A stretch of DNA of 64,000 nt. Origin: Burkholderiaceae bacterium (GTDB lineage Bacteria > Pseudomonadota > Gammaproteobacteria > Burkholderiales > Burkholderiaceae_A). Shown one piece after another: positions 30,249 to 49,416 of the stretch. Each line of letters begins with the position of its first letter. The stretch's first letter is position 1. Where the stretch lies: contig SGYQ01000002.1 of assembly GCA_004214155.1 (NCBI GenBank), positions 17,429 through 81,428 of the forward strand, read 5' to 3'. The notes below the pieces were generated by a model. That model did no database searches and was not told the origin of the DNA. It was given only the letters and a program-made list of their open reading frames with translations. The translations under genes were made by a program, and so were the position numbers.

Positions 30249-30258
30249 TGGAAATCAA

Positions 30259-30405: not shown

Positions 30406-30414
30406 GATGTTTAA

Positions 30415-30837: not shown

Positions 30838-30845
30838 AAGGTAAG

Positions 30846-33466: not shown

Positions 33467-33484
33467 AAATCACGAAATAATTTT

Positions 33485-33849: not shown

Positions 33850-34209
33850 TTACCGTTTATTAAAAGGATATCCTTTTATTCTAAGATCGTTATGCATATA
33901 TAGTTCTAGCAAGATAGCTTCGAATACAGGTTGAATAATTCCAGGACTTGATCCTAATAACTTTCGCAATGCCTCTGCGGAGATTTCTATACAAGTAACT
34001 TCACCTTTGGCTTTTGCAGATACTGCTCGAACTCCGCCATCTAGGATTGCTTGTTCTCCAAATGATGCTCCTGGTTTTAGGATTGCAACCTGTTTATTCG
34101 TATCGGGATCAAAAAGCTCAACTTCGCCAGCTTTTAAAACAAAAAAGTTTTCGGCTCGATCCTTTTTTTGGAATAACATCTCTCCATCTTTATAGGTGAC
34201 ATCAGCCAT
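33850..34209 (-). CDS. Stand-alone cyclic-nucleotide-binding (cNMP) domain protein, no output domain
   Basis: 119 aa: LFQKKDRAENFFVLKAGEVELF...LKPGASFGEQAILDGGVRAVSAKA. This is a beta-barrel with an FGE...R.A phosphate-binding-cassette-like segment. Confidence 0.7.
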   Translation of the reverse strand: MADVTYKDGEMLFQKKDRAENFFVLKAGEVELFDPDTNKQVAILKPGASFGEQAILDGGVRAVSAKAKGEVTCIEISAEALRKLLGSSPGIIQPVFEAILLELYMHNDLRIKGYPFNKR

Positions 34210-34223
34210 TGACTACTATCGTT

Positions 34224-34718
34224 TCAATCATTTTTTAGATAATTTGGAATATTGATTCCCTGCCCTAATATTCTTTCTATTGTCATTCGACAAACAGCTT
34301 TTAAGCCGGTATTAGTCAACTGCAGTTCTCTCATCGCATTTGGAATCGGGATAATTTTGCAATTTATAAATTCTTTCACTTTATAAGTGTGGCGCAAAGG
34401 AGTCTCCGATAATCCTTCAGCTAACCCAAGTACGGAACCCGGCCCCAATGTATATTCATGTTCACCATCAGTACACTCAACCGAGCCCATTGTGATGGCA
34501 TAAGCGCTCAATGGGACATCTCCTTTTTTTAGAATTTCGATGCCTACATCAAAAACTCCAATTTTCAATTTATCGGATGCCCATACCTTAAAGAAAAGTC
34601 TTTCCTGACTAGACATCTCTTTTTTTTCAAAAAGTTCAATGGTGCTTTTGAGCCTAGCATCCGCAAGGCTTAGCTCTTTGTATAAATCTCTGTTGATTTG
34701 GAATTTTGCCTGCGCCAT
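34224..34718 (-). CDS. Hypothetical protein, possibly a degenerate cNMP-binding-like domain
   Basis: 164 aa. ILKKGDVPLSAYAITMGSVEC...LGPGSVLGLAEGLSETPLRHTYKV follows the cNMP barrel spacing but lacks a canonical FGE..R(S/T)A cassette. Co-oriented with, and 14 nt upstream of, the 119-aa cNMP protein. Confidence 0.45.
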   Translation of the reverse strand: MAQAKFQINRDLYKELSLADARLKSTIELFEKKEMSSQERLFFKVWASDKLKIGVFDVGIEILKKGDVPLSAYAITMGSVECTDGEHEYTLGPGSVLGLAEGLSETPLRHTYKVKEFINCKIIPIPNAMRELQLTNTGLKAVCRMTIERILGQGINIPNYLKND

Positions 34719-34787
34719 TTTGTTTTGGAGATCTCAATTTGGTAGAATAGAGGTTGAATTATAGCGCAATTGAATTGTGAGGGGCTA

Positions 34788-35669
34788 ATGTTAAAAACCC
34801 GTTTTTGGGGAGTGCGAGGCACAATAGCCTGTCCTTATGACAGCTATATGAAATATGGGGGTAATACCTCATGCGTAACTGTGCAGTGTGATGACACGTT
34901 ACTGGTTTTTGACTCAGGTACTGGCATTCTTCCGTTGGGAAATAAACTCATGGCAAATGGTAATGTGAATGGAAGTGGGAATATCAGCGTTTTTTTCTCG
35001 CACACACATTGGGACCACATAAGCGGGTTTCCATTTTTCAAACCTGCTTACGCACCAAACTTTAATCTTGATCTATATTGCGGCAATCTCAAAAAACACG
35101 GAAGCTCAATTTTTGAAGTTTTATCGCATCAAATGGCGAACCCAACGTTTCCCGTGCCTATTGATATCCTGCAAGCGAAAATGCAATATCATGATTTCGA
35201 TGCAGGAGAAAATATTAAGCTATCTGATGAGATTCATCTTGACACTTGCTTGTTGAATCACCCGAAAGGTGCTACTGGATATCGTGTGAATTTCAAGGGT
35301 ATATCCGTTTGTTATGTTACAGATACGGAGCATAAAAAAGATGGACTTGACGAGAATATTCTTAAGCTAATAGAAAATACCGACCTTTTCATTTATGACT
35401 CGACGTATACAGAAGAGGAGTATCCAAATTTTGAAGGTTGGGGGCACTCTACCTGGCAAGAAGGGGTTCGATTATCCAAAGAGGCAGGTGTGAAAAATTA
35501 CGCAATTTTTCATCATGACCCCTCTCATGATGACGATTTTATGGACGAGGTGGAACTTGATGCAAAAAAAACGCTTGCGAGTGCATTTGTTGCTAAAGAG
35601 GGCATGGAAATTGAGTTTAATGGCACTTGTAGTGGTATTAAGTTTGGAAAATTTGATGACAAACCCTGA
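34788..35669 (+). CDS. MBL-fold metallo-hydrolase (HxHxDH); candidate phosphodiesterase
   Basis: ORF track 34770..35669. Start set to MLKTRFWGVRGT (ATG 34788). Motif FFSHTHWDHISGFPFF plus downstream His/Asp ligands (LLNHPKGATGY, VTDTEH, IFHHDPSHDD). Confidence 0.75.
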   Translation: MLKTRFWGVRGTIACPYDSYMKYGGNTSCVTVQCDDTLLVFDSGTGILPLGNKLMANGNVNGSGNISVFFSHTHWDHISGFPFFKPAYAPNFNLDLYCGNLKKHGSSIFEVLSHQMANPTFPVPIDILQAKMQYHDFDAGENIKLSDEIHLDTCLLNHPKGATGYRVNFKGISVCYVTDTEHKKDGLDENILKLIENTDLFIYDSTYTEEEYPNFEGWGHSTWQEGVRLSKEAGVKNYAIFHHDPSHDDDFMDEVELDAKKTLASAFVAKEGMEIEFNGTCSGIKFGKFDDKP

Positions 35670-35784
35670 TTTTAGAATAATAGGATTAGGTATTGCTGAT
35701 ATGAATTTTGTCTACCTGATGGCAAAAGGTGGTAGTTATGGAAGTTATAGCAGGACCTATAAGAACACTCGGGGATAGATAGAC

Positions 35785-38700
35785 TTGAACAAAATTTTTA
35801 AAACAAAATATTGTGAGAAACGGCAAACCTATCTTGCTACTCATGAAAAGGCAAAAATTGGTGTGCCGGCAACTAGTTCTGCTTCAAATGGACGAATTTG
35901 TCTAAAATATAACGTAATTGCATTAGCCATAAGCGCTTTGTTTACACAACCTCTGTTAGCACAAGGTTTAGTAAATCCCAATGTTGTCGCTGGTCAGGCA
36001 ACTATCAATGCAGTCAATCAAACCAATACCGTAATTCAACAAACAACAAATAAGGCTGTAATCAATTGGGAAAAATTCACAATCCCAAAGGATAACTCGG
36101 TCAATTTTCAACAACCGGATACAAGTAGCATTACGCTCAATCGTGTTTTAGGTAGTCAAAAATCAGAGATTCATGGACGTTTAAAGGCAAACGGTCAGGT
36201 TTGGCTACTAAATCCAAATGGCACATTGATCGGAGAAAATGGTTCTATCAATGCTCATGGCTTTATGGCAACTACGCATCAAATCTCCAATGATCAGTTT
36301 ATGAATGGAAACTATTCTTTACAAAAAAACAATAGGTTAAGCGGAGATATTCAGAATTTAGGTGTAATTGATATTTCTGATGGTGGATATGCGGTTTTGT
36401 CAGCAGATAAGGTTGTAAATGAAGGTGTAATTGGAGCGCGACTAGGAACTGTTGCTTTGGCAGCAGGAGAGGCAATTACCATTGATTTGGTTGGGGATCA
36501 GTTATTGAGCTTTCAAGTAGATTCGGCAACTTCTGATGGGTCGCGAAAAAGTGTAACAAACTCTGGAACAATTTCCGCACATGGTGGACATGTTCTATTA
36601 ACTGCAAAAGCAGCAAGTAATATTGTGGAAAGTGTGGTGAATTCTACTGGAGTCGTAGAAGCAGTTTCTGTTGAAAAGAAAAATGGAAAGATAGTATTTT
36701 CATCAGGCAGTAAAGGCACAACATCGATTGAAGGAACTGTAGATGTTTCTGGAAAAAACAGCGAAGAAACAGCAGGTTCGGTTGAGATCTTCGGAAAAGA
36801 CGTAAAGGTTGCAAACGCAAAAATTGATGCAACTGGAAGTGCTGGTGGAGGAAATGTATACGTAGGTGGTGGTTGGCAAGGAGCAAAGGTAGGAGATCAT
36901 GAGGCGGCGAAAACTGTAACGGTTTCTTCAGATTCCCTGATTGATGCAAGTGCTATTTCTGAGGGCGATGGAGGGGAAGTTGTGATTTGGTCGGATGTTC
37001 CAGACCCCTCTTCCGTGACTCGAGCCCACGGGGTACTCAAAGCAGAAGGGGGAGAGCATTCGGGAGATGGAGGAAAGGTAGAAACCTCAGGAAATGCTCT
37101 CCATACACAAAATATTCAGGTTAGTACACGGGCAAAAAATGGTGAATTTGGATTATGGCTTTTAGACCCAACTACGATCACCATTGGGAACGGAACAGAC
37201 AACAATACTCTTGTAAGCGGTGAGTATACCTATGATGGAGGCGATGCAAATGGCTTCATAGATGGACCCACTCTAAACGCATCCTTAGATGGTAATAATG
37301 TAGGCATTACTGCTGATAATATTACGTTGGCAGAAAGTTATAGCGATTCCTATGCCACTACCCTAACTTTAAATGCTACATCCGTTATCACTCTAACAGG
37401 TTCTTTTAATCGATCTGCAGGCACCATTATAGCGAATGCCGGGACCACATTAACCGGTGCTGGAGGACTTGCTTGCGGAGCAGCTTGTACCGTTTCCATA
37501 GGATCTGATAGCACGACATACACAGGGATAATTAATACTCCAAGCTTTACAAAACAGGGCTCTGGGACATTAACCCTTTCAGCAATAAATACCATGGAAG
37601 AGTCCACGGTTCTTAATGGCGGAATCAAAATAAGTAATGGTGGCGCATTAGGAGCAGGAGCTGTAGGCGTACACGATGGAGCTTTTGTAGATTTGAATGG
37701 ACAAATTGTATCGAACTCATTTGAGGTGCAAGGGGGAGTCAGTGGAGGTGGAGCTCTCAAAAACACAAGTGGAACACTTGCCCGGATAACTGCTACAAAC
37801 AATGGAACCGTTGCTATAAGGGGTGTTGGTAATGATACAAGGACAAAAATTGGAGGAAGTGGCGATCTTTCGATAGAAGTTCCGATTACCAATGCAACCG
37901 GTGTAACAACAGCAAAATTATTAAAAGGTGGTGGAACAGGAAAACTTTATTTAAAAGCTGCGAATACCTACAATGGGGGCACACAAATATACAGCGGTAC
38001 CGTAGTCGCTGACCATAGTGCGGCTTTGGGAAGCACTGGTAACATTGAGTTTACTGGAGGGATCCTTGGTATAACGGGAAACACTCAGGCCTTGGGCTCT
38101 GATCGAATTGGCAGTGGTTCGACGGCTACTGTAAATCTTGATGTTGGTGATGGTGTCAATTATGGGTTAACCGGTATCGCTTATTCGGGCGGATCATCTT
38201 CCTCATTAATCAAAACGGGTTCAGGAAATTTAGCCTTTATTGGAACTACTGCATTTCGAAATGGTGTGGATGTTCAGGCAGGTGATGTTGCCATAGGTGA
38301 TAATTCCACCGCAACAACTTTTAGCGGAAATTTACAGATTGCAAGTGGCTCAAATGTAAATTTCTTACCCACTTCCTCTATGACGTATACAGGGGCAATC
38401 GCAGGTTCTGGTTCTATAAATATTCAAGGAACCGGTAGCCAACGATTAATTTTCAATGGAAACACTGCAAGCTATAGTGGAACCACAAATGTTACTTCTG
38501 CAGTTTTTCAGGTAGGAGATGGTACAGCAAGGAGCTTTCAGGACCATGCTGGCACAGTAAATATCGATACAAATAGTGCACTAGAATTAAACCCTGGTAC
38601 ATCAGGCACTATCACAACATTAATTAATAGCGAAGGTTCAATCCGCAACATTGCCGCACAAGATATTACGTTCAGCAATATTAGTGCTCACACCGGCTCG

Positions 38701-41700
38701 ACAAGTGTTGCCTCAAATGGCTCCATAACCTTCAATGTTGCATCGGGCACACTGGCTCTTAGTGGCAATATAACGGGTGACGGGCAAATTATAAAAACAG
38801 GGTCTGGACAACTTAATTTGGAAGGAACAAATACATTTACCGGAGGCCTTCGAATTGCAGATGGAAATGTACAACTAGGCTCTTCACCCCTCCCCACTAC
38901 AGGAACAACTTTGCAACTGGGGGGTTCTGCAGTATTAAAAGTAAGTTCTGCAACACCGGATTATTCGGGAATCATGACCTTTGACTCCAATAGCTCGTAT
39001 CTAAGAATTTCAGTGCCTGCTGGGGACACTTATACGATGGCAAGCCCTATTACGTCGCAAACCGGCGGAATTCTATCCAAAAGAGGAGATGGAAAACTTA
39101 TCCTGAACGCAAATTTTGACTTTGGTGGCGGCGCTACAATTTACGGAGGCGATTTAGTTGTTGGGACTGGAGGAACATCTGGCAGGTTAAATTTAAGTAA
39201 TTCTAATTTCACATTCCATAATACCGGAGGCCGATATATATATAATCGCTCCGCTAATGTAACCAAAACACATCCTTTTAAAGTTGCTAATTCTTCAGCC
39301 TCAGGTTCTATAGATAATATTGGTGGGGGTACTCTGACCCTCACAGGTGCTATTGATGCAGGAATAACGATTCCCACGAATCCAACGAATGGTACGATAG
39401 TTTCATCTTCAAGCTCAAGTTCTAGTTCCGGGTCAACCGCCGGACCAACCAATACAGCTGCAGATTTTGGCACCCTAAGTATTTCTGGCAGTTTAACTGA
39501 AGGCCAGACGATTACCGCAAATTATACAATTACAGACGATAACGGGTTTTCCGGTACGCCACTGGTTCAGTGGTATCACGTAAGTGATCCTAGTACATCG
39601 ATTGCATCGGGCGGTAATACTTATGTACTTTCAGGAGCAGATGTTGGAGAAAGAATCGCTTTTGAAGTTACGTTTTCCGACAATGACGGGTTTTCGGAAA
39701 GATCTACGGTGTTTACTACTGAGGCAGCTGTGATTGTCGCAAGCAACGCAAACAACAATCAACAACAACCAGTAGAGCAACCAGTACAGCAACCAGTAGA
39801 GCAACCCGTAGAGCAACCAGTTATTTCGTCACCAGTTCAAGACACAACGCCGGAACCGAATTTCGATGTTCCAGCTGGTATCGGTCCAGGTGTTATTGAA
39901 GATTTACTTGTGGTTAGCGGTACTGAACATAATGTTGATTTCACTGATCCAGGTTTTGATCCTAATTTGCTCTTTTTTGACCAGACTTCAGAGACACCGC
40001 TAGGCCCGAATTTCAGTGGTCCATTCGACCCAATGTTGGATCCGAATTTCAATGGTCCATTTGACCCAACATTGAATCCAGGTATTGACGGCACATTTGT
40101 TCAGGACCCGTTCTACGAACCTCCTCCCGAATACAGCTCTGGCGATTTCTTTGAGGCTATTGCAAACGTAGGTTTATCTGGTGAAGAATTGACGGGCTCA
40201 TTTGAATTTTTTAAATCACAGGATCCATCAATACCGAATGACCCATTTTATGACCCGTCAGCTTATTTCATAGAAGCTGCAAATTTTGCAGGAGAAACGG
40301 GGTTAGGATTCGACCAGATTGCGGAATTTGCCGGTGAAGTTGACAGGCAAGTTTTCCTTGAAGCGGCAACCCTTACGGGAGAAATGGGGTTAGAATTCGA
40401 TCAAATTGCGGAATTTGCCGGTGAAGTTGACAGGCAAGTTTTCCTGGAAGCGGCAGAACTTACCGGTGAATATCAGCTAGATTTTTTTGAAGTAGCTCAG
40501 GTTGCTGAAAAAGTTGATGTTCAAATTTTGGATGATCTGGCAGTTCTGGCAGGAGAAGGCGGAAGTGTAGTAAAGGTTTTAGATAATGCGATCGAGGAAG
40601 CTTATGATGTTGTGCGACAAGTAGGCAACGTACCTCCACCCGGGGATTTCGGTCCTCCACCTGCAGACTTTGGTGAAGTGGCTGGTAGTCCTCCACCTGG
40701 AGACTTAGCTGCTCCTGGCGGAGATTTAGGAGGTCCTGAGGTAGCAGATGTGGCTGGAGACCCTGGATTAGAGCTCGCCCCTCCACCGGGAGATCTTAAT
40801 GGACCTCCTCCAGGAGATTTTGGACCTGGCCCAGGAGACCTAGGTGATGTAGCCGGTGGACCTGGCCCAGGAGAATTTTTAGCCCCTGCTCCAACCGATT
40901 TTGCACCTCCAATTCCAGGAGATTTAGCAGCTTTGCCAGGAGACTTTGCGCCTCCACCAGGACTAGACCTTGGGGAAATTGGAGAGTTTGGTGCTGAAGC
41001 TGCTAGTTTCGGAGATTTTACCGAATTTGGAGATGTAGGAGCACCTCCAGGAGATATTGGCGGACCACCACCGGGCGATATTAGTCCGGGTCCTGGTCCA
41101 GGAGGTGATTTGGGTGCTCCGCCACCAGGAGATGTACCTCCACCTGGAGATGGGCCTGATGGGCCTCCCCAGGGAGACGAGCCTCCTGCTGGAGATAGTC
41201 CACCGCCTGGGGACGAACCTGCACCAGGAGAATTAGCTGATGGTCCCGCAGGAGATGATGGATCCCCACCCGGAGATGAGCCTGCGCCAGAAAGCGCAGA
41301 GGCTCCTGGAGATGATGTTGGCCCTGGTGAAGAACCCGCTCCAGAAAGTGCAGATGCGGGCGGACCCGCTCCAGAGGTTGCTACAGATGGACCTGCTTCG
41401 GCAGATACTCCACCTGCTGGGGATACTGCTGGTGCAGGAGATGCGGTTGCTGCTGGAGATACTCCTCCTCCATCTGCTGGTGCTCCGCCTGGTGATGCAC
41501 CAGAAGCTCCAGCGCCTGCAGCAGCACCAGCTCCCATTACGGCAGATGCAGCTCCACCCCCACCACCACCGGTAGAGCCACCTCCTCCATCACCTGTACC
41601 TACCCAAAAAGCACCAACTCCGGTTGATAGTGCAGATGCTGGGGATAAAACTTTAGCTGCAGTTGCACCACCAAGCCCTCCAAAGCCTGCTTCTCAACCA

Positions 41701-41838
41701 CAGGCGGTATCAGTAAAAACGGTTTCTGTTGTGCCTGGTGGAGTTGTAAATGTTCAGGTACCTGTACCACCTAGACCTCCTGCTGGTCTTGCTGGAGCTC
41801 CTAAAATTCCTAGTGTTGGAAATAGCTCGAATTGGTAA
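35785..41838 (+). CDS. Two-partner-secretion exoprotein (TpsA; filamentous-hemagglutinin-type N-terminal domain) with beta-helix repeats and a proline-rich C-terminal tail
   Basis: TTG start. ESPR-like N-terminus MNKIFKTKYCEKRQTYLATHEKAK followed by the hydrophobic segment ALAISALFTQPLLAQG. TPS domain: TINAVNQTNTVIQQTTNKAVINWEKFTIPKDNSVNFQQP...LNRVLGSQKSEIHGRLKANGQVWLLNPNGTLIG (NPNG motif). At least five autotransporter-type beta-strand repeats (KQGSGTLTLSAINT.., KTGSGQLNLEGTNTFTGGLRI.., KRGDGKLILNANFDFGGGATIYGG..). An Ig-like module (TEGQTITANYTITDDNGF..). Then the repeats and the PPGD-rich tail. Confidence 0.85.
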   Translation: MNKIFKTKYCEKRQTYLATHEKAKIGVPATSSASNGRICLKYNVIALAISALFTQPLLAQGLVNPNVVAGQATINAVNQTNTVIQQTTNKAVINWEKFTIPKDNSVNFQQPDTSSITLNRVLGSQKSEIHGRLKANGQVWLLNPNGTLIGENGSINAHGFMATTHQISNDQFMNGNYSLQKNNRLSGDIQNLGVIDISDGGYAVLSADKVVNEGVIGARLGTVALAAGEAITIDLVGDQLLSFQVDSATSDGSRKSVTNSGTISAHGGHVLLTAKAASNIVESVVNSTGVVEAVSVEKKNGKIVFSSGSKGTTSIEGTVDVSGKNSEETAGSVEIFGKDVKVANAKIDATGSAGGGNVYVGGGWQGAKVGDHEAAKTVTVSSDSLIDASAISEGDGGEVVIWSDVPDPSSVTRAHGVLKAEGGEHSGDGGKVETSGNALHTQNIQVSTRAKNGEFGLWLLDPTTITIGNGTDNNTLVSGEYTYDGGDANGFIDGPTLNASLDGNNVGITADNITLAESYSDSYATTLTLNATSVITLTGSFNRSAGTIIANAGTTLTGAGGLACGAACTVSIGSDSTTYTGIINTPSFTKQGSGTLTLSAINTMEESTVLNGGIKISNGGALGAGAVGVHDGAFVDLNGQIVSNSFEVQGGVSGGGALKNTSGTLARITATNNGTVAIRGVGNDTRTKIGGSGDLSIEVPITNATGVTTAKLLKGGGTGKLYLKAANTYNGGTQIYSGTVVADHSAALGSTGNIEFTGGILGITGNTQALGSDRIGSGSTATVNLDVGDGVNYGLTGIAYSGGSSSSLIKTGSGNLAFIGTTAFRNGVDVQAGDVAIGDNSTATTFSGNLQIASGSNVNFLPTSSMTYTGAIAGSGSINIQGTGSQRLIFNGNTASYSGTTNVTSAVFQVGDGTARSFQDHAGTVNIDTNSALELNPGTSGTITTLINSEGSIRNIAAQDITFSNISAHTGSTSVASNGSITFNVASGTLALSGNITGDGQIIKTGSGQLNLEGTNTFTGGLRIADGNVQLGSSPLPTTGTTLQLGGSAVLKVSSATPDYSGIMTFDSNSSYLRISVPAGDTYTMASPITSQTGGILSKRGDGKLILNANFDFGGGATIYGGDLVVGTGGTSGRLNLSNSNFTFHNTGGRYIYNRSANVTKTHPFKVANSSASGSIDNIGGGTLTLTGAIDAGITIPTNPTNGTIVSSSSSSSSSGSTAGPTNTAADFGTLSISGSLTEGQTITANYTITDDNGFSGTPLVQWYHVSDPSTSIASGGNTYVLSGADVGERIAFEVTFSDNDGFSERSTVFTTEAAVIVASNANNNQQQPVEQPVQQPVEQPVEQPVISSPVQDTTPEPNFDVPAGIGPGVIEDLLVVSGTEHNVDFTDPGFDPNLLFFDQTSETPLGPNFSGPFDPMLDPNFNGPFDPTLNPGIDGTFVQDPFYEPPPEYSSGDFFEAIANVGLSGEELTGSFEFFKSQDPSIPNDPFYDPSAYFIEAANFAGETGLGFDQIAEFAGEVDRQVFLEAATLTGEMGLEFDQIAEFAGEVDRQVFLEAAELTGEYQLDFFEVAQVAEKVDVQILDDLAVLAGEGGSVVKVLDNAIEEAYDVVRQVGNVPPPGDFGPPPADFGEVAGSPPPGDLAAPGGDLGGPEVADVAGDPGLELAPPPGDLNGPPPGDFGPGPGDLGDVAGGPGPGEFLAPAPTDFAPPIPGDLAALPGDFAPPPGLDLGEIGEFGAEAASFGDFTEFGDVGAPPGDIGGPPPGDISPGPGPGGDLGAPPPGDVPPPGDGPDGPPQGDEPPAGDSPPPGDEPAPGELADGPAGDDGSPPGDEPAPESAEAPGDDVGPGEEPAPESADAGGPAPEVATDGPASADTPPAGDTAGAGDAVAAGDTPPPSAGAPPGDAPEAPAPAAAPAPITADAAPPPPPPVEPPPPSPVPTQKAPTPVDSADAGDKTLAAVAPPSPPKPASQPQAVSVKTVSVVPGGVVNVQVPVPPRPPAGLAGAPKIPSVGNSSNW
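39766..39822 (+). repeat. In-frame 12-bp tandem repeat (QPVE/QPVQ x ~5) inside tpsA
   Basis: caaccagtagag caaccagtacag caaccagtagag caacccgtagag caaccagtt, encoding QQPVEQPVQQPVEQPVEQPV. Confidence 0.85.
40291..40551 (+). repeat. Three tandem 87-bp (29-aa) units inside tpsA; units 1 and 2 nearly identical, unit 3 diverged
   Basis: Unit 1 (40291-40377): GETGLGFDQIAEFAGEVDRQVFLEAATLT. Unit 2 (40378-40464): GEMGLEFDQIAEFAGEVDRQVFLEAAELT. Unit 3 (40465-40551): GEYQLDFFEVAQVAEKVDVQILDDLAVLA. The nucleotide identity of units 1 and 2 is visible by eye. Confidence 0.85.
40630..41838 (+). repeat. Low-complexity Pro/Gly/Asp/Ala-rich coding region (PPGD-type repeats), locally GC-rich
   Basis: PPPGDFGPPPADFG..SPPPGDLAAPGGDLGG..APPPGDLNGPPPGDFGPGPGDLG..., ending in PPPPPPVEPPPPSPVP. 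I counted 38 G+C in 41461-41520 versus 15 G+C in 48001-48060. Confidence 0.9.
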
Positions 41839-41843
41839 CGGTT

Positions 41844-44800
41844 ATGTTAACGATCATAAGAAATTATCTTAAGTTACTATTCTTAACTATATGTTATAGT
41901 GCAATTTTTTCTCAAAGTGTTGCTCAAAATAAACCGAAGATTCAGCAACAAGAACTTTATGACAACCTCATCGACGAGAAATGTGTTGCCCGTCCGCGAG
42001 TTGACATGCTTCCTCCGCCAGGATTGCCAGTAGATAAAATGGTTTATTGTAATGACCAACTGGTTGCGTCAGTTTCCGCAGCAAAACTAACGGCTATTGA
42101 AGAGGGAGAGGATTTTAAAACAAAGCTTACAGACACCTATGCGAACAGCCGTGTATACAATTTGAATTCGAGAAGAATGCGTTGTGATGACAAAACAACA
42201 AATCTTGCTAAAATTAAATGGGAAAATGCACTTGCCTACCCTTGCAAGCTGAGCAACGGTGGCTGGCCTCATTTGGTTGTGTTATTGCCTCGAAAAGATA
42301 AGCTTTATATTGCAGAAGGAGCGCCGTCACTCCTACCAACGCTTATTTCTGCAGTTTATCCAAAAAGAAAAGAAGAGCCTACAAAATCTGCTTACACGGA
42401 AAGCTTGCAGGAGATTTTTGGAGGGCCCGTTCCCCTGGCTTCATCAAAGGATTTGAAAAATTTCGATAAAATTTTAGCAGATGCAAGAACAGCAAATACG
42501 CAAGGTCGCTATCAAGACTCGGAATCATTATTTAGAAAAGCATTAGATTTACAAACTAAATTATTGAATGAAAGGGATATTTCTATTGCGGAAACTTTGA
42601 TGGACCTTGCTCTAAATGTAAGCAACCAAGGTCGCGACGAAGAGGCGTTAGCACTATTTAGAAGAGCTGAGCCGATTATCCAGGTCTCACCAGTTGACTC
42701 CGACAGAGCTCGATTTGCCTCTTATCAAGGATACCATGAGGCAAATTCCAAACGCTATGATAAGGCATTACAGTTTGCCTCAGGAGCTGTTGTCTCCTGG
42801 CGTAAAATTGCTACAGGCCCGAGTGTTGATTTTTCAAGCCTTTTTGGAGAGAGTTCAGATGCTGATCCTAGAGCAGCAGAAAAAGGAGAGCTAGCCCTTG
42901 CTTTAAATTTACAGGCAAATATGGCACTTCGATTAGAACAAAATGAACTAGCGCAGGCTGCTGCTTCCGAAGCATTGCAGATATTAAATGATACAGATGG
43001 ACTGCCACGCTGGTGGAAAGCAGATATTCTATTAACTTTGGGAAAAATAGCTTCCGCACAAGGAAGACTTTCTGCTGCTGAAAAATTTCTGAATACTGCA
43101 CTTGCTGAGCGTGGGATCTCTACCGGAGATGGACCACATCTTCTTCCAATTCGGTTTGCTCTTGCAAAAGCTTATACAAGCGAGGCTATGCACACATCCT
43201 CAATAATCACATACCGTCAAATTTTTAAAAAAATAAAAAGTTTTCCGGTTGGAACAAAGGTAAATATTAAGAAAGAAGATATCCTTCCTTTTGCCGCCTC
43301 GATTGTGCAGCATGCAAAGACAATTAAAGATGATAAGGAAAAACAGGGTCTCTTTAATGAGGCATTTGATGCATTTCAGCTTTTAAGACCATCAGTTGTA
43401 GAAGATACCATTGCGAAAGCCTCAGCAAGACTTGCTATAGACGACCCAGATTTAGCGAAACTACTTGCAGATATTCAAAATGCGGAAAGAGAGCGTGATG
43501 CGGCAAATGTGGAATTATCCTATGAGTCTTCTTTACCAGATGATCAACGCAGTAAGTTAATAGAAGATCAATTGACACTGCGAAAAAAAACAGCGTTTTT
43601 ACAACTTCAAAAATTAAATAAAGAAATCAATACAAAATTTCCCAATTACGCTACTTTGACTGCACCTAAACCCTTAATTACGCTCGATTTTCGAAACCGA
43701 ATTGGGGCAACCGAGGGAGCTGTCTCTTTTATAGTAGGAGAAAATAAGTCTTTTATTCAACTGATTAGACGAGACGGTATCTTTATTGGGGAAATCAAAG
43801 AAGGTGAGGAGTCTTTAAATGAATCTGTTCAGGCCTTACGAAGTGCTCTTGAATTAAAAGGAGGAACGATTAATGAATTTGACTCCCCTCTTGCTTATTC
43901 TCTATACAACCGTCTATTTACCTCTGTTAAAGACAAGTTGCTTGATTTGAACCACTTAATCATCATTCCATCAGGCCCCCTTGCAAGCCTACCTTTTTCC
44001 CTTCTAATAGAGAAAGACCCTAAAAACAAAGGTTATGACGGAGTCTCCTGGATGGTCAGCCGAATGGCATTTTCCTATTCACCATCATTGAAAACATTTT
44101 ATTCTCAGCGAACTGCAGCAAAGAATTCCAAGCCAACGAAGAAACTTTTCGCACTTGCGAATCCATTGCTGACCGGAGAAAAAGTCCAAACGAAAGATAC
44201 CGAAAAAGGTTTGTCAGCGCTTTCTACAAGTTGCAGACAGGCTGGTCCAGCTTCCTCTGATTTAATTCGCTCACTTGCGCCATTACCCGATACAGAAAGT
44301 GAAGTAAATAACGTGAAAAACAGTTTAGGGAAAACAGAAAAATCCGAGATTCAAATTTTCACAAAAAAAGATGCTAATGAAAAAAATCTTCGAAATGTTC
44401 AATTAGATGATTACAGAGTATTGTATTTTGCAACTCATGGGCTATTGCCCGGAGAATTAAAGTGTCAGGCTGAGCCTGGATTAGTACTTACTCCTCCAAA
44501 AAAAGCAAATTCAAGAAATAACGATGGTTTGCTAGAAGCAAGTGAGATTGCATTATTAAAATTAAACGCTGATTTAGTTGTATTGTCAGCATGCAATACT
44601 GCTGGTAGTGGAGGGAAATTTGGGGGTGATGCCCTTTCTGGTCTAGCAGAAGCTTTTTTCTATGCTGGAGCCAAAAGTTTGGTGGTCAGTCATTGGCAAG
44701 TTCCTTCGAAAGCGACAGCAAGTCTAATGTCTAAAATGTTTGAAGAGCTTGGCACAGAGTTAGAATTGGGCGCGTCTTTAGCTATGAGAAAAGCTCAAAC

Positions 44801-44930
44801 CGAATTAATAAGTAAGAAAGAAACATCGCATCCCTTTTTCTGGGCTGCATTTGTTGTGGTTGGTGACGGAATCGCAGATTCTTGGTTACCGATCCCTAGA
44901 GGTGAAAAACTTGCGAAAAATATAAATTAA
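41844..44930 (+). CDS. Exported TPR-CHAT protein (caspase-like cysteine protease domain)
   Basis: ORF track 41832 (TTG). I prefer ATG 41844 (MLTIIRNYLKLLFLTICYSAIFSQSVAQ, a Sec-type signal peptide). Central TPR-like repeats (GRYQDSESLFRKALDLQTKLL.., NQGRDEEALALFRRAEPI..). C-terminal CHAT domain with the His context VLYFATHGLL and the Cys context DLVVLSACNTAGSGG. Confidence 0.85.
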   Translation: MLTIIRNYLKLLFLTICYSAIFSQSVAQNKPKIQQQELYDNLIDEKCVARPRVDMLPPPGLPVDKMVYCNDQLVASVSAAKLTAIEEGEDFKTKLTDTYANSRVYNLNSRRMRCDDKTTNLAKIKWENALAYPCKLSNGGWPHLVVLLPRKDKLYIAEGAPSLLPTLISAVYPKRKEEPTKSAYTESLQEIFGGPVPLASSKDLKNFDKILADARTANTQGRYQDSESLFRKALDLQTKLLNERDISIAETLMDLALNVSNQGRDEEALALFRRAEPIIQVSPVDSDRARFASYQGYHEANSKRYDKALQFASGAVVSWRKIATGPSVDFSSLFGESSDADPRAAEKGELALALNLQANMALRLEQNELAQAAASEALQILNDTDGLPRWWKADILLTLGKIASAQGRLSAAEKFLNTALAERGISTGDGPHLLPIRFALAKAYTSEAMHTSSIITYRQIFKKIKSFPVGTKVNIKKEDILPFAASIVQHAKTIKDDKEKQGLFNEAFDAFQLLRPSVVEDTIAKASARLAIDDPDLAKLLADIQNAERERDAANVELSYESSLPDDQRSKLIEDQLTLRKKTAFLQLQKLNKEINTKFPNYATLTAPKPLITLDFRNRIGATEGAVSFIVGENKSFIQLIRRDGIFIGEIKEGEESLNESVQALRSALELKGGTINEFDSPLAYSLYNRLFTSVKDKLLDLNHLIIIPSGPLASLPFSLLIEKDPKNKGYDGVSWMVSRMAFSYSPSLKTFYSQRTAAKNSKPTKKLFALANPLLTGEKVQTKDTEKGLSALSTSCRQAGPASSDLIRSLAPLPDTESEVNNVKNSLGKTEKSEIQIFTKKDANEKNLRNVQLDDYRVLYFATHGLLPGELKCQAEPGLVLTPPKKANSRNNDGLLEASEIALLKLNADLVVLSACNTAGSGGKFGGDALSGLAEAFFYAGAKSLVVSHWQVPSKATASLMSKMFEELGTELELGASLAMRKAQTELISKKETSHPFFWAAFVVVGDGIADSWLPIPRGEKLAKNIN

Positions 44931-44933
44931 AAT

Positions 44934-45680
44934 ATGAGAATGAAAAAAAAACTACTTTTATATGTATTACCTCTAACGTTGTTCTTGCATTTTGGAATAG
45001 TCAGTGCTGAATTAATCGTTCTTCAGGCACGTGGTGGCGGTCTTAAAGTAGGTCAGAGTGTATCTGCTACTAAGAAAATTGTTTTAAAAGAAGGTGAACG
45101 CGTGACATTGATTGGACCTGATGGAAAAAGTATTAAATTACGAGGCCCATTTGATGATGTTCCTGTCAAAGATGGTGGCAAGGGTACTGACCCGAAAAAA
45201 GCACTAGCTGCATTAATCGCAACACGCGATGCTCGCACGAGTTCCGTAGGTGTTGTGCGATCTGGTACTGCAGATGTTAATACACCTGACCCTGCTGCCA
45301 TTGACATTACGAGAGGTGGTCCACGTTGCCTAGATGAAGGGGCTAAACCTGAATTTTGGAGACCCGATGCAACAAATGAACAGCCTTTTGTAATGTATCC
45401 AATTGATCGTTCTTGGAGAGCGGATTTACTTTGGGAAAAAGGTCAGAGCAGAATGACAATGCCAGATCTTAGTAAATTTGATGGAGTTACAACTGTTCTT
45501 GTAAATATTGACCAACAAGAGTTTGTAATTAGTTTCTCAGTAATACCTAAATCAGTGAAGGACCCATTTATCCTAACAGCCTGGCTACTTGAAAAAGGTT
45601 GCGTACAACAAGCTAATGCTCTTTTGCGAACAATAGCTTCTAATCAAACACCTCCCACCGAACCCATTCCAGTTAACTAA
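44934..45680 (+). CDS. Hypothetical exported protein (248 aa), operon-internal orphan
   Basis: Signal peptide MRMKKKLLLYVLPLTLFLHFGIVSA. The N-terminal segment LKVGQSVSATKKIVLKEGERVTLIGPDGKSIKLRGP has the look of a FecR-type beta-sandwich (weak, by eye). Two Cys residues. The stop overlaps the cyclase ATG (TAATG). Confidence 0.5.
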   Translation: MRMKKKLLLYVLPLTLFLHFGIVSAELIVLQARGGGLKVGQSVSATKKIVLKEGERVTLIGPDGKSIKLRGPFDDVPVKDGGKGTDPKKALAALIATRDARTSSVGVVRSGTADVNTPDPAAIDITRGGPRCLDEGAKPEFWRPDATNEQPFVMYPIDRSWRADLLWEKGQSRMTMPDLSKFDGVTTVLVNIDQQEFVISFSVIPKSVKDPFILTAWLLEKGCVQQANALLRTIASNQTPPTEPIPVN

Positions 45681-47698
45681 TGAAAACAAATACAAAACAA
45701 TATTTATCAGCTTTTGGAGTCGTAATCATTGCAACACTAGTGGGAGCATTTGCAACCTTAAATTTGACATTTTTAAAGGGATTTGAAAATGCTGCAAGTG
45801 ACATAAGAATATCTGTCCTGCAATCTCCTGAAGAGCAATCACAAAAAATTGTTCTTGCCACAATTACTGAAGAAACAGTTGCTCTGTTTCAGTATCGCTC
45901 GCCAGTTGATAGGGAATTTCTTGCTAACTTGATTATGTTACTGCAGGCAAAGGGAGCAAAGGCAATTGGTATTGACGTACTTTTAGACTCACCTACTGAA
46001 ATCGAAAAAGATAAATATCTAAAGGAAACTCTCAGAAATGCCACTGTTCCATTATTTCTTAGTTACACAAATTCACCAGGAGTTGTAACAGAGGATCAAC
46101 TTGAATATCTAAACGACTTCGTACCAGAAAAATTTCGAGCAGCTGCGAATATGGCAACCGACCCGTTCGATGGTACCGTTAGGTGGATTTTTCCCGGTGA
46201 GACAAATGCTGGGATGCCTGTAAGCTTTCCTAGAAAAGGTGCGGAGATTTATGGTGTAGATACTTCGAATCTATTTGAAAAAGAAAAGGAGGCTCAAACA
46301 AACCTTCCGATAGCATGGAGACCCAAAAAAGATTTGGAAACGCCGGCATTTCCCGAATATCCTGCTCACGCCGTTGCTGTGCTGCCAGCTGAATGGTTTA
46401 AAGATAAGATTGTGCTTGTGGGTGCTAAATTGTCGCTAGAAGATCGACATCGAACCCCGATGGCAATTATAGATGATGAATGGGAAGGAAGGATGCCTGG
46501 AGTCACCGTTATGGCTCATGCAATGTCCCAACTAATTGAAGATCGCAAACCGCATAAGGTAACTCAAGAATTAACTTTCGGTATTTGTGCCGTCTTAGGT
46601 ATTATAGGAATATTAATTGGTCTTGCAAAAAAAGGTATTCTATTTAGCGTTATAAGCGGTTTTTTCGCCGCATTAACTTTATGGCTCGTTGCCTTCTTAG
46701 GATTCTCAGAAGGGCTGCCAATGATTCCAGTAGTTGCTCCCACAATCACATTAGCTTTTGCCCTATGGATGATGGATTTATTAATTGGCAAAGCAGAACG
46801 TCAACAAAGGCAATTTGTGCAAGGAGCATTTTCACGCTATGTGGAACCAGCAGTAGTAGAGAAACTTGTCGAAAATCCTGAATATTTAAATGTGACAGGA
46901 GTTAAGCAAGATACTACTTTTATCTTTACGGATGTTGCTGGATTTACTACGTTATCTGAAAAGCTAGAGTCCAAGGTTTTATCGGACGTTCTAAACGCTT
47001 ACCTCGATGGAGCATGTGAAATCATATTTAAATATGGAGGAACAGTTGATAAATTTATTGGCGATGCAATCATGGTGGTATTTAATGCTCCTATCCCACA
47101 AAAAGACCATATAGAAAGAGCAGTAATGTGCGCATTAGAACTCGATGTATACTGTGAAAAGTTTCGCGAAGAAGAAAATGCGAAGGGAATCCCGATCGGT
47201 GTTACCCGAATTGGGATACATACCGGACCAGCTACCGTGGGAAACTTTGGATCGCAGTCCCGAATGGATTTTACAGCCCTTGGAGATACGGTTAATACTG
47301 CTGCCAGAACAGAAGGTGTAAACAAATATTTTGGAACGAGGATTGCTGCAACAGAAGAAATTGTCAGCAAGTGTGCAACAAACCTCTTTTTTCTTCCAAT
47401 TGGCGATATAGTTTTAAAAGGAAAAACTGTACCAGTTCCTTTGTATAACCCAGTTTCCGAAGATTTTTTCAATAGCGAGTATGCGAGAGAATATCGGGAT
47501 GTCTATAAAGAATTACGAAAAACTGATATCGAAATAAATCTAAAAGATAGAAATGATAATGAATTGCAGGGGCATCCTGTTGGAAATAAAATGATAGAGC
47601 TTCACAAACGATTTTCAAGTGAACCCTTAGCCAAATTTCATACTGATAGAATACAAAAAGGATTAATTACAACCAAAGTAATTATGGACAGTAAATGA
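45680..47698 (+). CDS. CHASE2 sensor domain-containing class III adenylate cyclase
   Basis: Topology is TM - ~290-aa extracytoplasmic domain - 3 TM (typical CHASE2). Cyclase core: TFIFTDVAGFTTLSE (metal Asp), VDKFIGDAIMVVF (Lys and second metal Asp), RIGIHTGPATVGNFGS, MDFTALGDTVNTAARTEG (Asn/Arg). Confidence 0.85.
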   Translation: MKTNTKQYLSAFGVVIIATLVGAFATLNLTFLKGFENAASDIRISVLQSPEEQSQKIVLATITEETVALFQYRSPVDREFLANLIMLLQAKGAKAIGIDVLLDSPTEIEKDKYLKETLRNATVPLFLSYTNSPGVVTEDQLEYLNDFVPEKFRAAANMATDPFDGTVRWIFPGETNAGMPVSFPRKGAEIYGVDTSNLFEKEKEAQTNLPIAWRPKKDLETPAFPEYPAHAVAVLPAEWFKDKIVLVGAKLSLEDRHRTPMAIIDDEWEGRMPGVTVMAHAMSQLIEDRKPHKVTQELTFGICAVLGIIGILIGLAKKGILFSVISGFFAALTLWLVAFLGFSEGLPMIPVVAPTITLAFALWMMDLLIGKAERQQRQFVQGAFSRYVEPAVVEKLVENPEYLNVTGVKQDTTFIFTDVAGFTTLSEKLESKVLSDVLNAYLDGACEIIFKYGGTVDKFIGDAIMVVFNAPIPQKDHIERAVMCALELDVYCEKFREEENAKGIPIGVTRIGIHTGPATVGNFGSQSRMDFTALGDTVNTAARTEGVNKYFGTRIAATEEIVSKCATNLFFLPIGDIVLKGKTVPVPLYNPVSEDFFNSEYAREYRDVYKELRKTDIEINLKDRNDNELQGHPVGNKMIELHKRFSSEPLAKFHTDRIQKGLITTKVIMDSK

Positions 47699-49416
47699 GG
47701 CAAATAAACCTATTTCTTTTATATGTAGTGACAAATTTTTTTTTTTGCAGTGTTGCTTACAGTCAGGTTCCGTTACCAGGGGACGCCGACACATCGCGTT
47801 TAAGACCCCCTAGATTACCTCTGCCTACAACGCCTAAGTTTGACTTACGAATAGAATCGCCTGAAAAATCGCCCGTTCCAAAAGCAGTTGACGATATCAC
47901 ATTTGAAGTTAAAGCTATTGATCTTGATGGAGCAGAATATTATTCGAGAAGTGAAATTGATAAAATTTTTTCTCCCTTGATTGGAAAAAAAATTAGTTTA
48001 AATGAATTACGAGATGCCACAGAAAAATTAGAGAAAAAATATAAGGATGATGATTTTTTTCTAGTAAGAGTTATTATTCCGCCCCAAGAAGTAGAAAATG
48101 GAATTTTTAAAGTTAAGATAATTGAGGGTTATATAAATAATGTTTTTGTTGAGGGGGGGAATAAATATTCACGAGAAAAAATATTATCAGTTGTAAAAAA
48201 ACTTGAAAATAAAAAACCAATCGATTTGAAGAGCTTAGAACGGGCTTTACTATTGCTAAATGATCTTCCGGGTATTTCAGGAAGTGGTGTCCTCAGACAA
48301 GGTTCAGACATTGGATCATCCGAATTACTGGTTACAATTAACCCTCCTCCTCCTACGAGCTATATATTAACGCTTAACAATGGAGCATCTAAAACTATGG
48401 GGCAGTACAGTACAAATATTAATGCCACATTTAATAATCCTGACTACCCCAGTTCTGTGAGTGTAGGCTTTTCATCTGCACTAAAAAATGATGACGATCA
48501 ACTTTTTAACCCCATCTTAAAAGCATTCAATGGCACGTATTCTACCTCATTAGGGGATGATGGCCTCATTTTTTCTCTGGCTGGTGTTTTCGCTAATGCA
48601 AAACCACAAGGTAGTATTAAATCACTCGGAATTCTTAGCCAATCATATTCTGTAGCGCCTCGATTACGTTATTCAATCAAAAGAACAAGAGATGAGTCAT
48701 ACTACTTGGAAGGTGGATTGAATGTTGCTCGCAGTAAAACCTTTTTATTAGACTCAAGTACAACGAAAGACAAACTAACTGTTGCTGATTTTGTATTCTC
48801 GGTTACCAATGATGTTTGGTTTGGAGGAAGCACTCAATTAAATTTTACTCTTGCACAGGGCTTAGATTTGTTTGGGTCTAGAGGAGAGAGTACAAGTTTG
48901 CCAGGTCCTTCAGTAGCAAATTTCAAACAAACATTTTTAAAATATAAATTCTCAGGAAACCATTCATTGCCTGTAAAAAAGATCAATGGGAGTCTCAAAT
49001 TATCTGCTCAAGCGCAATGGACAAATGATAAGTTATTGGCTGGTGAGCAAATCACCTTTGGTGGTCCTGCTATTGGCAGAGGATATGACGGAGGAGCTAT
49101 TGCAGGCGAAAAGGGATTTGGTTTAAGTGTTGAGCTATCAAGGAAGCTTAAAAGAAAGAATTTGTTAGGACTAGACCTGAGTAATTTTGAATTGTTTGGA
49201 TTTATTGACTATGCGGAGGCAAAGATCCTTAAAGAGCCAATCAGTGGGACACCTGAGAAAAGTAGTTATATCGGCTCACATGGTATTGGCGCAAGACTCT
49301 CGGAAAGATCTGGTTTAATGCTAGATCTCACGATTGCGAGAGCAAGAAACGAAAAACCAAGTCAAGATGCAAAAAGAAATCCGAGGGTGATTCTATCGCT
49401 GACCAAACCTTTTTAA
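47695..49416 (+). CDS. ShlB/FhaC/HecB-family TpsB outer-membrane transporter
   Basis: Signal peptide, two POTRA-like units (ITFEVKAIDLDGAEYYS...LRDATEKLEKKYKDDDFFLVRVIIPPQEVENGIFKVKIIEGYINNVFVEG; ...LERALLLLNDLPGISG), then a beta-barrel ending in ...LTKPF. The start overlaps the cyclase stop (ATGA). Confidence 0.9.
   Translation: MRQINLFLLYVVTNFFFCSVAYSQVPLPGDADTSRLRPPRLPLPTTPKFDLRIESPEKSPVPKAVDDITFEVKAIDLDGAEYYSRSEIDKIFSPLIGKKISLNELRDATEKLEKKYKDDDFFLVRVIIPPQEVENGIFKVKIIEGYINNVFVEGGNKYSREKILSVVKKLENKKPIDLKSLERALLLLNDLPGISGSGVLRQGSDIGSSELLVTINPPPPTSYILTLNNGASKTMGQYSTNINATFNNPDYPSSVSVGFSSALKNDDDQLFNPILKAFNGTYSTSLGDDGLIFSLAGVFANAKPQGSIKSLGILSQSYSVAPRLRYSIKRTRDESYYLEGGLNVARSKTFLLDSSTTKDKLTVADFVFSVTNDVWFGGSTQLNFTLAQGLDLFGSRGESTSLPGPSVANFKQTFLKYKFSGNHSLPVKKINGSLKLSAQAQWTNDKLLAGEQITFGGPAIGRGYDGGAIAGEKGFGLSVELSRKLKRKNLLGLDLSNFELFGFIDYAEAKILKEPISGTPEKSSYIGSHGIGARLSERSGLMLDLTIARARNEKPSQDAKRNPRVILSLTKPF

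Follow-up and report, generated by a model that had tools for sequence, protein, structure and literature searches.

Why should the two partners of a two-partner secretion (TPS) system, the exoprotein TpsA and its outer-membrane transporter TpsB, be separated in one operon by the genes of an exported caspase-fold protease, a small exported protein and a membrane-bound adenylate cyclase? This arrangement is found in a stretch of 64,000 nucleotides (nt) from a Burkholderiaceae bacterium (GCA_004214155.1, contig SGYQ01000002.1, positions 17,429-81,428), which is referred to as the window and whose positions are used as coordinates throughout, unless a locus in another genome is named. Five plus-strand genes follow each other in the order TpsA, CHAT, g3, CHASE2 cyclase, TpsB. 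As judged from sequence, the cassette is a conserved five-component envelope module and not a TPS operon that has been accidentally interrupted. The way in which the parts would work together is more tentative. In the explanation favored here, the C-terminal end of TpsA would be recognized by the protease in the periplasm and its state reported to the cytoplasm as cyclic AMP (cAMP); module and mechanism taken together are given a probability of about 0.42. The five genes are the following:

35785-41838, plus strand: TpsA exoprotein, 2017 aa (open reading frame listing; Pfam TPS and PATR; NCBIfam TIGR01901)
41844-44930, plus strand: TPR-CHAT protease of the caspase fold, exported, 1028 aa when counted from the ATG (Pfam CHAT and TPR_12)
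44934-45680, plus strand: g3, an exported protein of 248 aa from an unnamed family (homologues, alignment, AlphaFold2 model)
45680-47698, plus strand: CHASE2 receptor class III adenylate cyclase, 672 aa (Pfam, catalytic residues)
47695-49416, plus strand: TpsB transporter of the ShlB/FhaC type, 573 aa (Pfam ShlB and POTRA_2)

Read base by base, these genes are tightly packed. The TAA stop codon of tpsA (end at 41838) is followed after 5 nt by the ATG of the CHAT gene at 41844, for which the mechanical listing of open reading frames (ORFs) opens earlier, with a TTG at 41832. The CHAT gene ends with TAA at 44930 and is separated by 3 nt (“aat”) from the ATG of g3 at 44934, the stop codon of g3 and the start codon of the cyclase gene overlap as TAATG (45678-45682), and the cyclase and tpsB genes overlap as ATGA (47695-47698). 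An earlier reading of this DNA (the original prediction) had described the same four junctions and had considered the five genes as one translationally coupled unit; the junctions are borne out, and the genes do form one tightly packed unit. Its domain calls fared equally well, as TPS, CHAT, TPR, CHASE2, cyclase, ShlB and POTRA were all recovered when the window proteins were searched against Pfam and NCBIfam, and the fifth gene indeed codes for a POTRA-bearing TpsB of the ShlB/FhaC type. Tight junctions are possible in any operon, and the main evidence that the parts work together comes instead from their conservation.

For a census of related loci, an alignment of 23 g3 homologues served as the seed and one genome per species was scanned. 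Of 126 confirmed g3 loci, 80 from Burkholderiales and Sphingomonadales were kept, and their six-frame ORFs were searched with the window proteins, while only contigs of sufficient length were counted as testable. The closest loci belong to uncultured marine or aquatic Burkholderiaceae and betaproteobacteria with 98% and 93% identity. Beside g3, a CHAT gene was present at all 70 testable loci, the CHASE2 cyclase at 73 of 74, TpsB at 64 of 65 and TpsA at 34 of 36. The single cyclase and TpsB misses are artefacts of the coordinate rules (a fused ORF or a duplicated g3), and most loci that appeared to lack TpsA in the first pass carry a long plus-strand ORF, up to >2000 aa, which leaves the fetched flank.

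The same set of genes occurs in four orders. TpsA-CHAT-g3-cyclase-TpsB is found in the window, in Burkholderiales and in some Sphingomonadales, CHAT-g3-cyclase-TpsB-TpsA in many Sphingomonadales and TpsB-TpsA-CHAT-g3-cyclase on a Niveispirillum megaplasmid. The fourth order, CHAT-cyclase-g3-TpsB-TpsA, is that of a strongly diverged cassette, termed type 2, which is carried by Sphingobium herbicidovorans, S. chlorophenolicum L-1, Novosphingobium sp. Chol11, Sphingobium sp. SCG-1 and one metagenome contig. Here, identity to the window proteins is only about 28-31% for CHAT and for the cyclase, a TPS-like N-terminus that Pfam missed is present in the large protein (probability 88%), and the small protein is a remote homologue of g3 in which both conserved cysteines are aligned (hhalign probability 98.5%, E 3.9e-15). 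The gene-neighborhood analysis that had been proposed as a check of co-conservation is therefore strongly positive, in the counts given above as well as in the four orders. The retention of five parts through rearrangement and divergence, over more than 80 loci, lies beyond chance. A coincidental juxtaposition, in which unrelated genes would have been inserted into a TPS operon of this lineage, can draw on nothing but the general observation that operons can be mosaic; it is refuted by the census and by the order variants across Burkholderiales, Sphingomonadales and Rhodospirillales, and its probability is next to zero. The five parts very probably constitute one functional module, which is widespread, being kept together in clearly more than a hundred species, and which is present in both Betaproteobacteria and Alphaproteobacteria.

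Two further arrangements were seen at individual loci. Locus L016 exhibits a TpsA-type C-terminal element on the opposite strand downstream of TpsB (8325-9710, minus strand), i.e., a convergent tpsA and a further variant of the gene order. On the Niveispirillum megaplasmid (L082, 15544-19446, minus strand), a 1300-aa protein with RTX repeats, a subtilase (S8) domain and a P-domain is encoded just downstream of the cassette.

The CHAT gene by itself does not predict the module, as plasmid-borne CHAT homologues outside the cassette (Agrobacterium vitis, Oscillatoria, Nostoc, Pseudosulfitobacter) lie in unrelated contexts. The original prediction had also mentioned CHAT/CHASE2/ShlB neighborhoods in cyanobacterial and proteobacterial annotations. 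The cyanobacterial ones were not reproduced in what was a light test, comprising two cyanobacterial plasmid CHAT matches that have no CHASE2 or ShlB neighbors.

Which part of TpsA could connect the secretion system to the other components? Three segments of the exoprotein have to be distinguished:

35995-36714, plus strand: TPS domain, residues 71-310 (PF05860, 9.6e-33; conserved in the TpsA alignment)
40486-41625, plus strand: low-complexity tail rich in Pro, Asp, Glu and Gly, approximately residues 1568-1947 (composition)
41626-41835, plus strand: extreme C-terminal element (ECT), the last 70 residues (alignment of 17 diverse loci)

The tpsA gene starts with a TTG codon, and the protein begins with an extended signal peptide (MNKIFK... 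followed by ...ALFTQPLLAQG). The N-terminal TPS domain contains the NPNG motif at residue 143 and is accompanied by matches to the NCBIfam filamentous-haemagglutinin N-terminal domain (TIGR01901, adhes_NPXG, 1.4e-21) and to PATR repeats. Together with Sec signal peptides on both TpsA and TpsB, as read by eye, these features characterize a two-partner secretion pair. A beta-helix with the PATR repeats is followed by an acidic repeat region and the Pro-rich tail. In the acidic region, an 87-bp tandem repeat of 2.4 copies (40266-40470, plus strand) encodes a repeated ...GLEFDQIAEFAGEVDRQVFLEAA... unit. Two Pro/Gly/Ser-rich ORFs lie opposite tpsA (40602-41537, minus strand, 311 aa; 37350-37892, minus strand, 180 aa), which very likely are not genes and only mirror the repetitive, GC-rich coding strand.

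A Pro-rich tail of about 400 aa had been part of the original prediction and is borne out: residues 1568-2017 contain 24% Pro and 16% Asp plus Glu (16-18% for the low-complexity tail up to about residue 1947), and this composition accounts for a local rise of the GC content to 0.51. The Pfam search of TpsA found no domain in the tail. Similarly Pro-rich tails are present in the close relatives L002 and L003, and less so at other loci. Conservation resumes at the very end of the protein. The ECT of the window protein reads DSADAGDKTLA ... VVNVQVPVPPRPP ... PSVGNSSNW-COOH and follows a pattern of D-x-A-D-x-G-D-[K/P]-x-L-A, a Pro run, V-x-V-Q-V-P-x-P-P-R-P and [R/K]-[F/Y]-S-x-x-G-N-x-x-x-W at the carboxyl end. 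This pattern is common to Burkholderiales, Sphingomonadales and Niveispirillum, irrespective of whether tpsA lies upstream or downstream, and a hidden Markov model (HMM) of the ECT matches the ends of ORFs at 41 loci, in most cases with no more than two residues left before the stop codon. In the alignment of 17 loci, the terminal residue divides into a W class and an L/I/F/M class. A profile search against a set of 5.8 billion proteins returned 13 short fragments only, which carry no domain or context information and do not indicate how far the ECT extends beyond the cassette. Type-2 TpsA proteins exhibit a different conserved end, ...TGAGNEDLW[D/E]R-x-C-GGPGE-...-C, with a Cys-x7-8-Cys pair, and have the GN-x-x-L-W motif alone in common with type 1. 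The suggested importance of the TpsA tail for periplasmic partners gains independent support from an ECT that is conserved across bacterial classes.

The protein encoded next to this C-terminus is the TPR-CHAT protease. Its signal peptide appears to end at ...SQSVAQ|N (by eye), TPR_12 (2.5e-16) and further TPR families match at about residues 215-430, and the CHAT domain (1e-60) covers approximately residues 683-1008. The catalytic dyad of His865 (44436-44438) and Cys917 (44592-44594), located in the motifs YFATHG and LSACNTA as verified by translation, is invariant in 59 CHAT orthologues, in line with the earlier description of a CHAT protein with a Sec signal peptide and intact His and Cys contexts. 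A phmmer search of PDB sequences yielded generic TPR matches only.

The third gene, g3, had been described as an exported orphan. Export is supported by a signal peptide ending at ...IVSA|E (by eye) and there is no match in Pfam, NCBIfam or PADLOC; the orphan status has to be given up, as 1208 representatives, all of about 240 aa, were found at E ≤ 1e-3 among 1.84 billion clusters. None of the hundreds of homologues is named, and a family of roughly 1,200 representatives without a Pfam model deserves to be recorded in any case. Cys132 and Cys223 are invariant. The AlphaFold2 model (predicted local distance difference test score 84.7) consists of two beta-rich domains and C-terminal helices, and a Foldseek search of the PDB with this model revealed nothing at E < 1e-3 (template modeling score ≤ 0.24). 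A FecR-like domain was considered for g3 and rejected: 23 members of the family, scanned with Pfam at a cutoff as loose as E 10, showed no FecR match, a profile search of the PDB gave nothing meaningful, and hhalign against the FecR region of the Sinorhizobium meliloti protein NsrA reached a probability of 0.7%, with only a short “GPDGK” resemblance. At two loci, tandem g3 paralogues are found between the CHAT and CHASE2 cyclase genes (L063, 8789-10717; L064, 9023-10723).

The g3 and cyclase genes are translationally overlapped in both types of cassette, and a reduced form, which consists of the cyclase and g3 alone and lacks CHAT, TpsA and TpsB, exists at L090 and L091. The retention of g3 with the cyclase alone makes it look like a co-receptor of the cyclase and not like a bystander; on these sequence comparisons, g3 is likely the co-receptor of CHASE2. 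The reduced form lends support to a different explanation as well, in which the cassette comprises two halves that are co-regulated and mechanistically separate. CHAT would then serve only in the maturation or release of TpsA (compare SphB1, CtpA and DegP for filamentous hemagglutinin, FHA), g3 and the cyclase would sense an unrelated periplasmic or external cue, and cAMP would time the expression of the adhesin operon. A Crp/Fnr regulator directly upstream of the type-2 cassettes fits such a transcriptional feedback, and CHASE2 sensors with FecR-type periplasmic partners are described in the absence of a TPS system (PMC5192318, PMC9239204). Co-regulation leaves unexplained, however, why the five genes have all remained side by side in four orders and two types, and why tpsA and tpsB enclose the cyclase and g3 genes, with stop and start codons that overlap. 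This explanation, one of the two main rivals, is rated as rather unlikely.

The cyclase itself consists of one N-terminal transmembrane segment, a periplasmic CHASE2 domain (1.6e-31, residues 21-306, nt 45740-46597), a transmembrane bundle and a cytoplasmic cyclase domain (Guanylate_cyc 4.5e-19, residues 410-582, nt 46907-47425), its topology being read by eye. The predicted completeness of the catalytic residues is confirmed: the two metal-binding Asp (D418, D462), the substrate Lys (K458), the Asn and Arg of the transition state (N539, R543) and K582 do not vary among 67 orthologues. The adenine-specifying Lys is retained, and the nearest solved cyclase domains are those of the adenylate cyclases CyaB (3r5g, 4.8e-33) and CyaC (1wc0). 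TpsB exhibits the typical features of its branch of the Omp85 superfamily, which are a POTRA domain (POTRA_2 2.4e-16, residues 70-145), a ShlB barrel (1.5e-24, residues 207-510) and a (V/G)RGY loop 6, here GRGYD, of which G461, R462 and D465 are invariant in the TpsB alignment; its signal peptide ends at ...VAYS|Q (by eye).

Defense systems commonly contain CHAT proteases and class III cyclases, and a contact-dependent toxin akin to contact-dependent inhibition (CDI), or an anti-phage defense built on a caspase-like protease and a cyclase, had to be considered. The cyclase domain even matches the Pycsar PycC models (4.8e-29), but this reflects general class III homology, and its closest relatives and adenine-specifying Lys mark it as an adenylate cyclase. 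CDI systems combine a polymorphic toxin C-terminus with an immunity gene, whereas the TpsA C-terminus is conserved, contains no toxin domain and is followed by no immunity-sized ORF, the CHAT gene starting 5 nt downstream. Pycsar, CBASS and type III CRISPR accessories are recognized by model matches beyond a generic catalytic domain and by cytoplasmic location. PADLOC, in contrast, gave no match for CHAT, g3, TpsA and TpsB and matched the cyclase and cyclic nucleotide-binding (CNB) domains only, the CHAT and g3 proteins carry Sec signal peptides, and the sensor domain of the cyclase is extracytoplasmic. Both readings fail these defining tests and are highly improbable.

Where would the cAMP signal be read? 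Upstream of tpsA, the cassette is accompanied by three genes, two of them divergent:

33850-34209, minus strand: stand-alone CNB-domain protein, 119 aa, candidate cAMP reader (cNMP_binding 2.1e-19; conserved in L002)
34224-34718, minus strand: 164-aa protein with a marginal, diverged CNB-like domain (Pfam E 0.0094, below cutoff)
34770-35669, plus strand: metallo-beta-lactamase (MBL)-fold hydrolase, possibly, on weak matches, a cyclic-nucleotide phosphodiesterase (Lactamase_B_2 5.2e-15)

Two cNMP-binding proteins had been predicted at this place. The 119-aa protein is clearly one of them, and the 164-aa protein is a marginal case: its PDB matches are all CNB domains (PKG, HCN) with a best E of 0.007, and a BLASTP comparison of the two proteins was not significant. 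The MBL gene ends at 35669, 115 nt before tpsA on the same strand, and its product was correctly recognized as an MBL hydrolase. The proposed role in cAMP clearance fared less well, since the NCBIfam models for RNase Z and “cyc_nuc_deg_phdiest” match far below cutoff (39 bits vs. 400) and the PDB search gave weak RNase Z matches only, without an informative solved relative. All three genes are confined to the closest relatives, L001-L003. Local reading of cAMP, as originally predicted, nevertheless gains support from cNMP-binding neighbors of three architectures, which are non-homologous to one another and recur beside the cassette. The small CNB proteins belong to the window lineage, Crp/Fnr regulators adjoin the type-2 cassettes as mentioned above, and a protein of about 820 aa with Pyr_redox, two CNB and 4Fe-4S dicluster domains is encoded at about 15 loci of both classes (L011, L012, L013, L015, L017, L018 and L022 in Betaproteobacteria; L051, L057, L059, L065, L067, L074, L075 and L080 in Sphingomonadales). 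The window contains no copy of this protein, which from its domain composition is a candidate cAMP-regulated redox enzyme.

Further upstream, the window cassette is flanked by a cytochrome c maturation operon (ccmA/B-C-E-F-G-H, 28160-33847), headed by a 452-aa ORF (28160-29518, plus strand) with ABC ATPase and CcmB domains that appears to be a CcmA-CcmB fusion; on the other side, a convergent Mrp-type antiporter operon starts at 49418. Scans for promoters and terminators between 33400 and 50000 gave counts within the shuffled expectation, and operon boundaries cannot be drawn from them. In the type-2 cassettes and in a reduced cyclase and g3 locus, genes for cytochrome c554-like and HbpS-like heme-binding proteins follow (L086, 15136-18473; L089, 19872 onward; L090, 12900-16243; L092, 19124 onward). 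A link of the cAMP module to heme or redox functions is possible, given the ccm operon that abuts the window cassette. Elsewhere in the window, a cobalamin riboswitch (26515-26705, minus strand, 71.5 bits, E 1.2e-15) and a tRNA-Pro (GGG) gene (56767-56843, minus strand), the sole tRNA gene, were identified.

How might the five parts work together? In TPS systems, TpsB exports TpsA with the N-terminus first, and a C-terminal part can be kept in the periplasm, where that of FhaB is degraded, that of HMW1 serves as an anchor and that of CdiA awaits a trigger. TPR domains typically grip short peptide motifs, which are often carboxyl-terminal. The C-terminus of TpsA is under strong purifying selection and is inherited together with an extracytoplasmic sensor domain and two exported proteins; a location in the periplasm, where it would meet all of them, fits this pattern best, and the TPR-CHAT protein is a natural candidate to bind the ECT and cut nearby. 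In this model, TpsB would thread TpsA outward while the tail and the ECT remain in the periplasm, as do FhaB prodomains, the HMW1 anchor and arrested CdiA. The TPR part of the protease would bind the ECT there, with a possible cut near the D-x-A-D motif. With g3 as the co-receptor of CHASE2, engagement, cleavage or withdrawal of the tail would then alter the activity of the cyclase, whereby cytoplasmic cAMP would record whether the surface filament is in contact, under load, released or has failed to be exported. This cAMP may be read by neighboring CNB proteins, i.e., the small CNB proteins here and the Crp/Fnr regulator or the flavin/Fe-S CNB enzyme elsewhere, and may be degraded by the weakly supported MBL enzyme in this lineage only.

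Several observations weigh against this explanation. L019 and L050 have ample flanks and no adjacent TpsA. The type-1 ECT HMM does not match the C-terminus of type-2 TpsA, so that the mechanism of recognition would not be universal at the sequence level. At L090 and L091, the signaling pair can evidently work without the TPS half, and the MBL and small CNB genes are restricted to close relatives. Signal peptides, hydrophobic segments and membrane topology were all judged by eye from translations. The presence of the tail in the periplasm, its cleavage by CHAT and the response of the cyclase are inferred, and D-x-A-D as the cleavage site is a guess. The specific relay from tail to protease to cyclase is thus proposed tentatively, at somewhat less than even odds.

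The same components could also be connected the other way round. If TpsA acted as the extracellular sensor that activates CHAT, the substrate might be g3 or the CHASE2 ectodomain, and g3 would inhibit the cyclase until it is destroyed, as has been suggested for the periplasmic part of NsrA and in the manner of Craspase or of regulated-proteolysis cascades. An inhibitory role of NsrA-type modules on membrane cyclases has been proposed (PMC9239204), the TPR-CHAT proteases that are known act as switches which are activated and have a protein substrate of their own (Craspase), autoproteolysis has been proposed for DdvA (PMC11506125), and g3 is invariably adjacent to the cyclase. On the other hand, g3 and the cyclase persist without CHAT at L090 and L091, no cleavage motif was identified in g3, and the conservation of the ECT is explained no better than by a relay that starts from the TpsA tail. 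A proteolytic switch on the receptor side is accordingly regarded as unlikely.

Within the favored relay, a more specific version can be formulated, namely a proteolysis-gated outside-in sensor: TpsA would be threaded through TpsB, its C-terminal tag would be exposed or withdrawn upon contact or pulling and cut by CHAT, and g3-CHASE2 would convert this event into a cAMP pulse. Though doubtful in this detailed form, such a sensor would be a bacterial counterpart of the mechano-proteolytic signaling by Notch or adhesion receptors, and a CHASE2 domain would for the first time have a defined physiological input. The ligands of CHASE2 are described as unknown (PMC5192318, PMC10581220), and the module offers a CHASE2 cyclase that is genetically locked to envelope proteins, with the ECT, g3 and a CHAT cleavage product as candidate inputs. 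With a periplasmic protease of its own and a second messenger as output, the system would open the purpose of the long, discarded C-termini of many TpsA proteins to direct tests, and a caspase-fold protease would join bacterial envelope biology. Cultured carriers are available with Sphingobium chlorophenolicum L-1, S. herbicidovorans MH, Sandarakinorhabdus limnophila DSM 17366 and Sphingomonas humi JCM 16603.

To which known systems can the module be compared? The literature search revealed no paper that links a TPS system with CHAT or CHASE2 or that describes the module, and reviews of TPS and Omp85 proteins, including PMC5422565, do not mention CHAT, caspases or cyclases. In the literature searched, the combination of two-partner secretion including C-terminal processing with signaling from the outer membrane to CHASE2 is undescribed. 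Each half has parallels. The C-terminal region of FhaB is subject to regulated periplasmic proteolysis. With FhaB/FhaC, HMW1/HMW1B and CdiA/CdiB, the module shares the TPS domain and the ShlB-type TpsB (PMC5422565 for TPS in general), as well as an extended C-terminal region in which a proline-rich stretch is followed by a conserved end, as seen here in the composition of the tail and in the ECT. However, DegP, CtpA and SphB1 are not encoded within the operon and are not caspase-fold proteases, and none of the three systems includes a cyclase or another signaling enzyme.

For the protease, the closest parallels are DdvA and Csx29, in which TPR-CHAT proteins act as signal-controlled switches. 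DdvA of Myxococcus xanthus provides the periplasmic precedent; it is anchored in the membrane, its active site is incomplete, and it controls an extracytoplasmic function (ECF) sigma factor (PMC11506125), while Csx29 is cytoplasmic and activated by RNA. The CHAT protein of the module, in contrast, is predicted to be soluble and Sec-exported with an intact, invariant dyad. A small exported protein directly beside a CHASE2 sensor, presumably as its periplasmic partner, has a parallel in the Burkholderia “BiofilmReg” operon, where a FecR-LysM protein is encoded with a CHASE2 histidine kinase (PMC5192318). That system differs from the g3-CHASE2 pair by its histidine kinase output and its FecR and LysM partner, and it contains neither a protease nor a secretion system. 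In Campylobacterota, a cluster of a CHASE2 cyclase, a cAMP phosphodiesterase, a FecR-domain protein of the outer membrane along with a TPR protein was inferred by its authors to form one pathway (PMC9239204). The likeness consists in a CHASE2 adenylate cyclase associated with an envelope beta-barrel, a TPR protein and a candidate phosphodiesterase. Yet this cluster is described as a neighborhood only, it contains no TpsA/TpsB, CHAT is unmentioned, and its small partner is of the FecR type, whereas g3 is not detectably FecR.

In S. meliloti, a protein-like signal needs the outer-membrane protein NsrA in order to activate the CHASE2 cyclases CyaK, CyaD1 and CyaD2, and the resulting cAMP is read by Clr (PMC7529298, PMC13001267). 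As in the module, an outer-membrane protein is encoded beside a CHASE2 class III cyclase with four transmembrane segments, and a surface signal would be passed on via cAMP to a cNMP-binding protein. On the S. meliloti replicon, a 1209-aa ORF directly upstream of the CHASE2 cyclase, which is taken to be NsrA, comprises FecR and TPR domains and a C-terminal region without a Pfam match. Both systems contain TPR domains, a small beta-rich module in the periplasm and an outer-membrane barrel; a TPS pair, a CHAT protease and a secreted filament are absent from that of S. meliloti. The gene of a PycTM (Pycsar-effector transmembrane) protein (2.5e-12) lies immediately upstream of the presumed nsrA-CHASE2 cyclase pair and diverges from it (L081, 3616-4539, minus strand). 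Homology of the NsrA barrel to TpsB was rejected, with an hhalign probability of 0.2% against the C-terminal half of NsrA. By Pfam, no protein of the cassette contains a FecR domain, so that an NsrA-type FecR-TPR neighbor is lacking, and hhalign found no significant similarity between g3 and the NsrA FecR region. Candidates for a nearby cAMP reader are the CNB proteins adjoining the window cassette and the Crp/Fnr or Pyr_redox-CNB-Fer4 proteins adjoining the cassette at other loci. The resemblance is one of functional analogy and not of family membership, and by this analogy NsrA-CyaK is the nearest studied counterpart of the five-component module.

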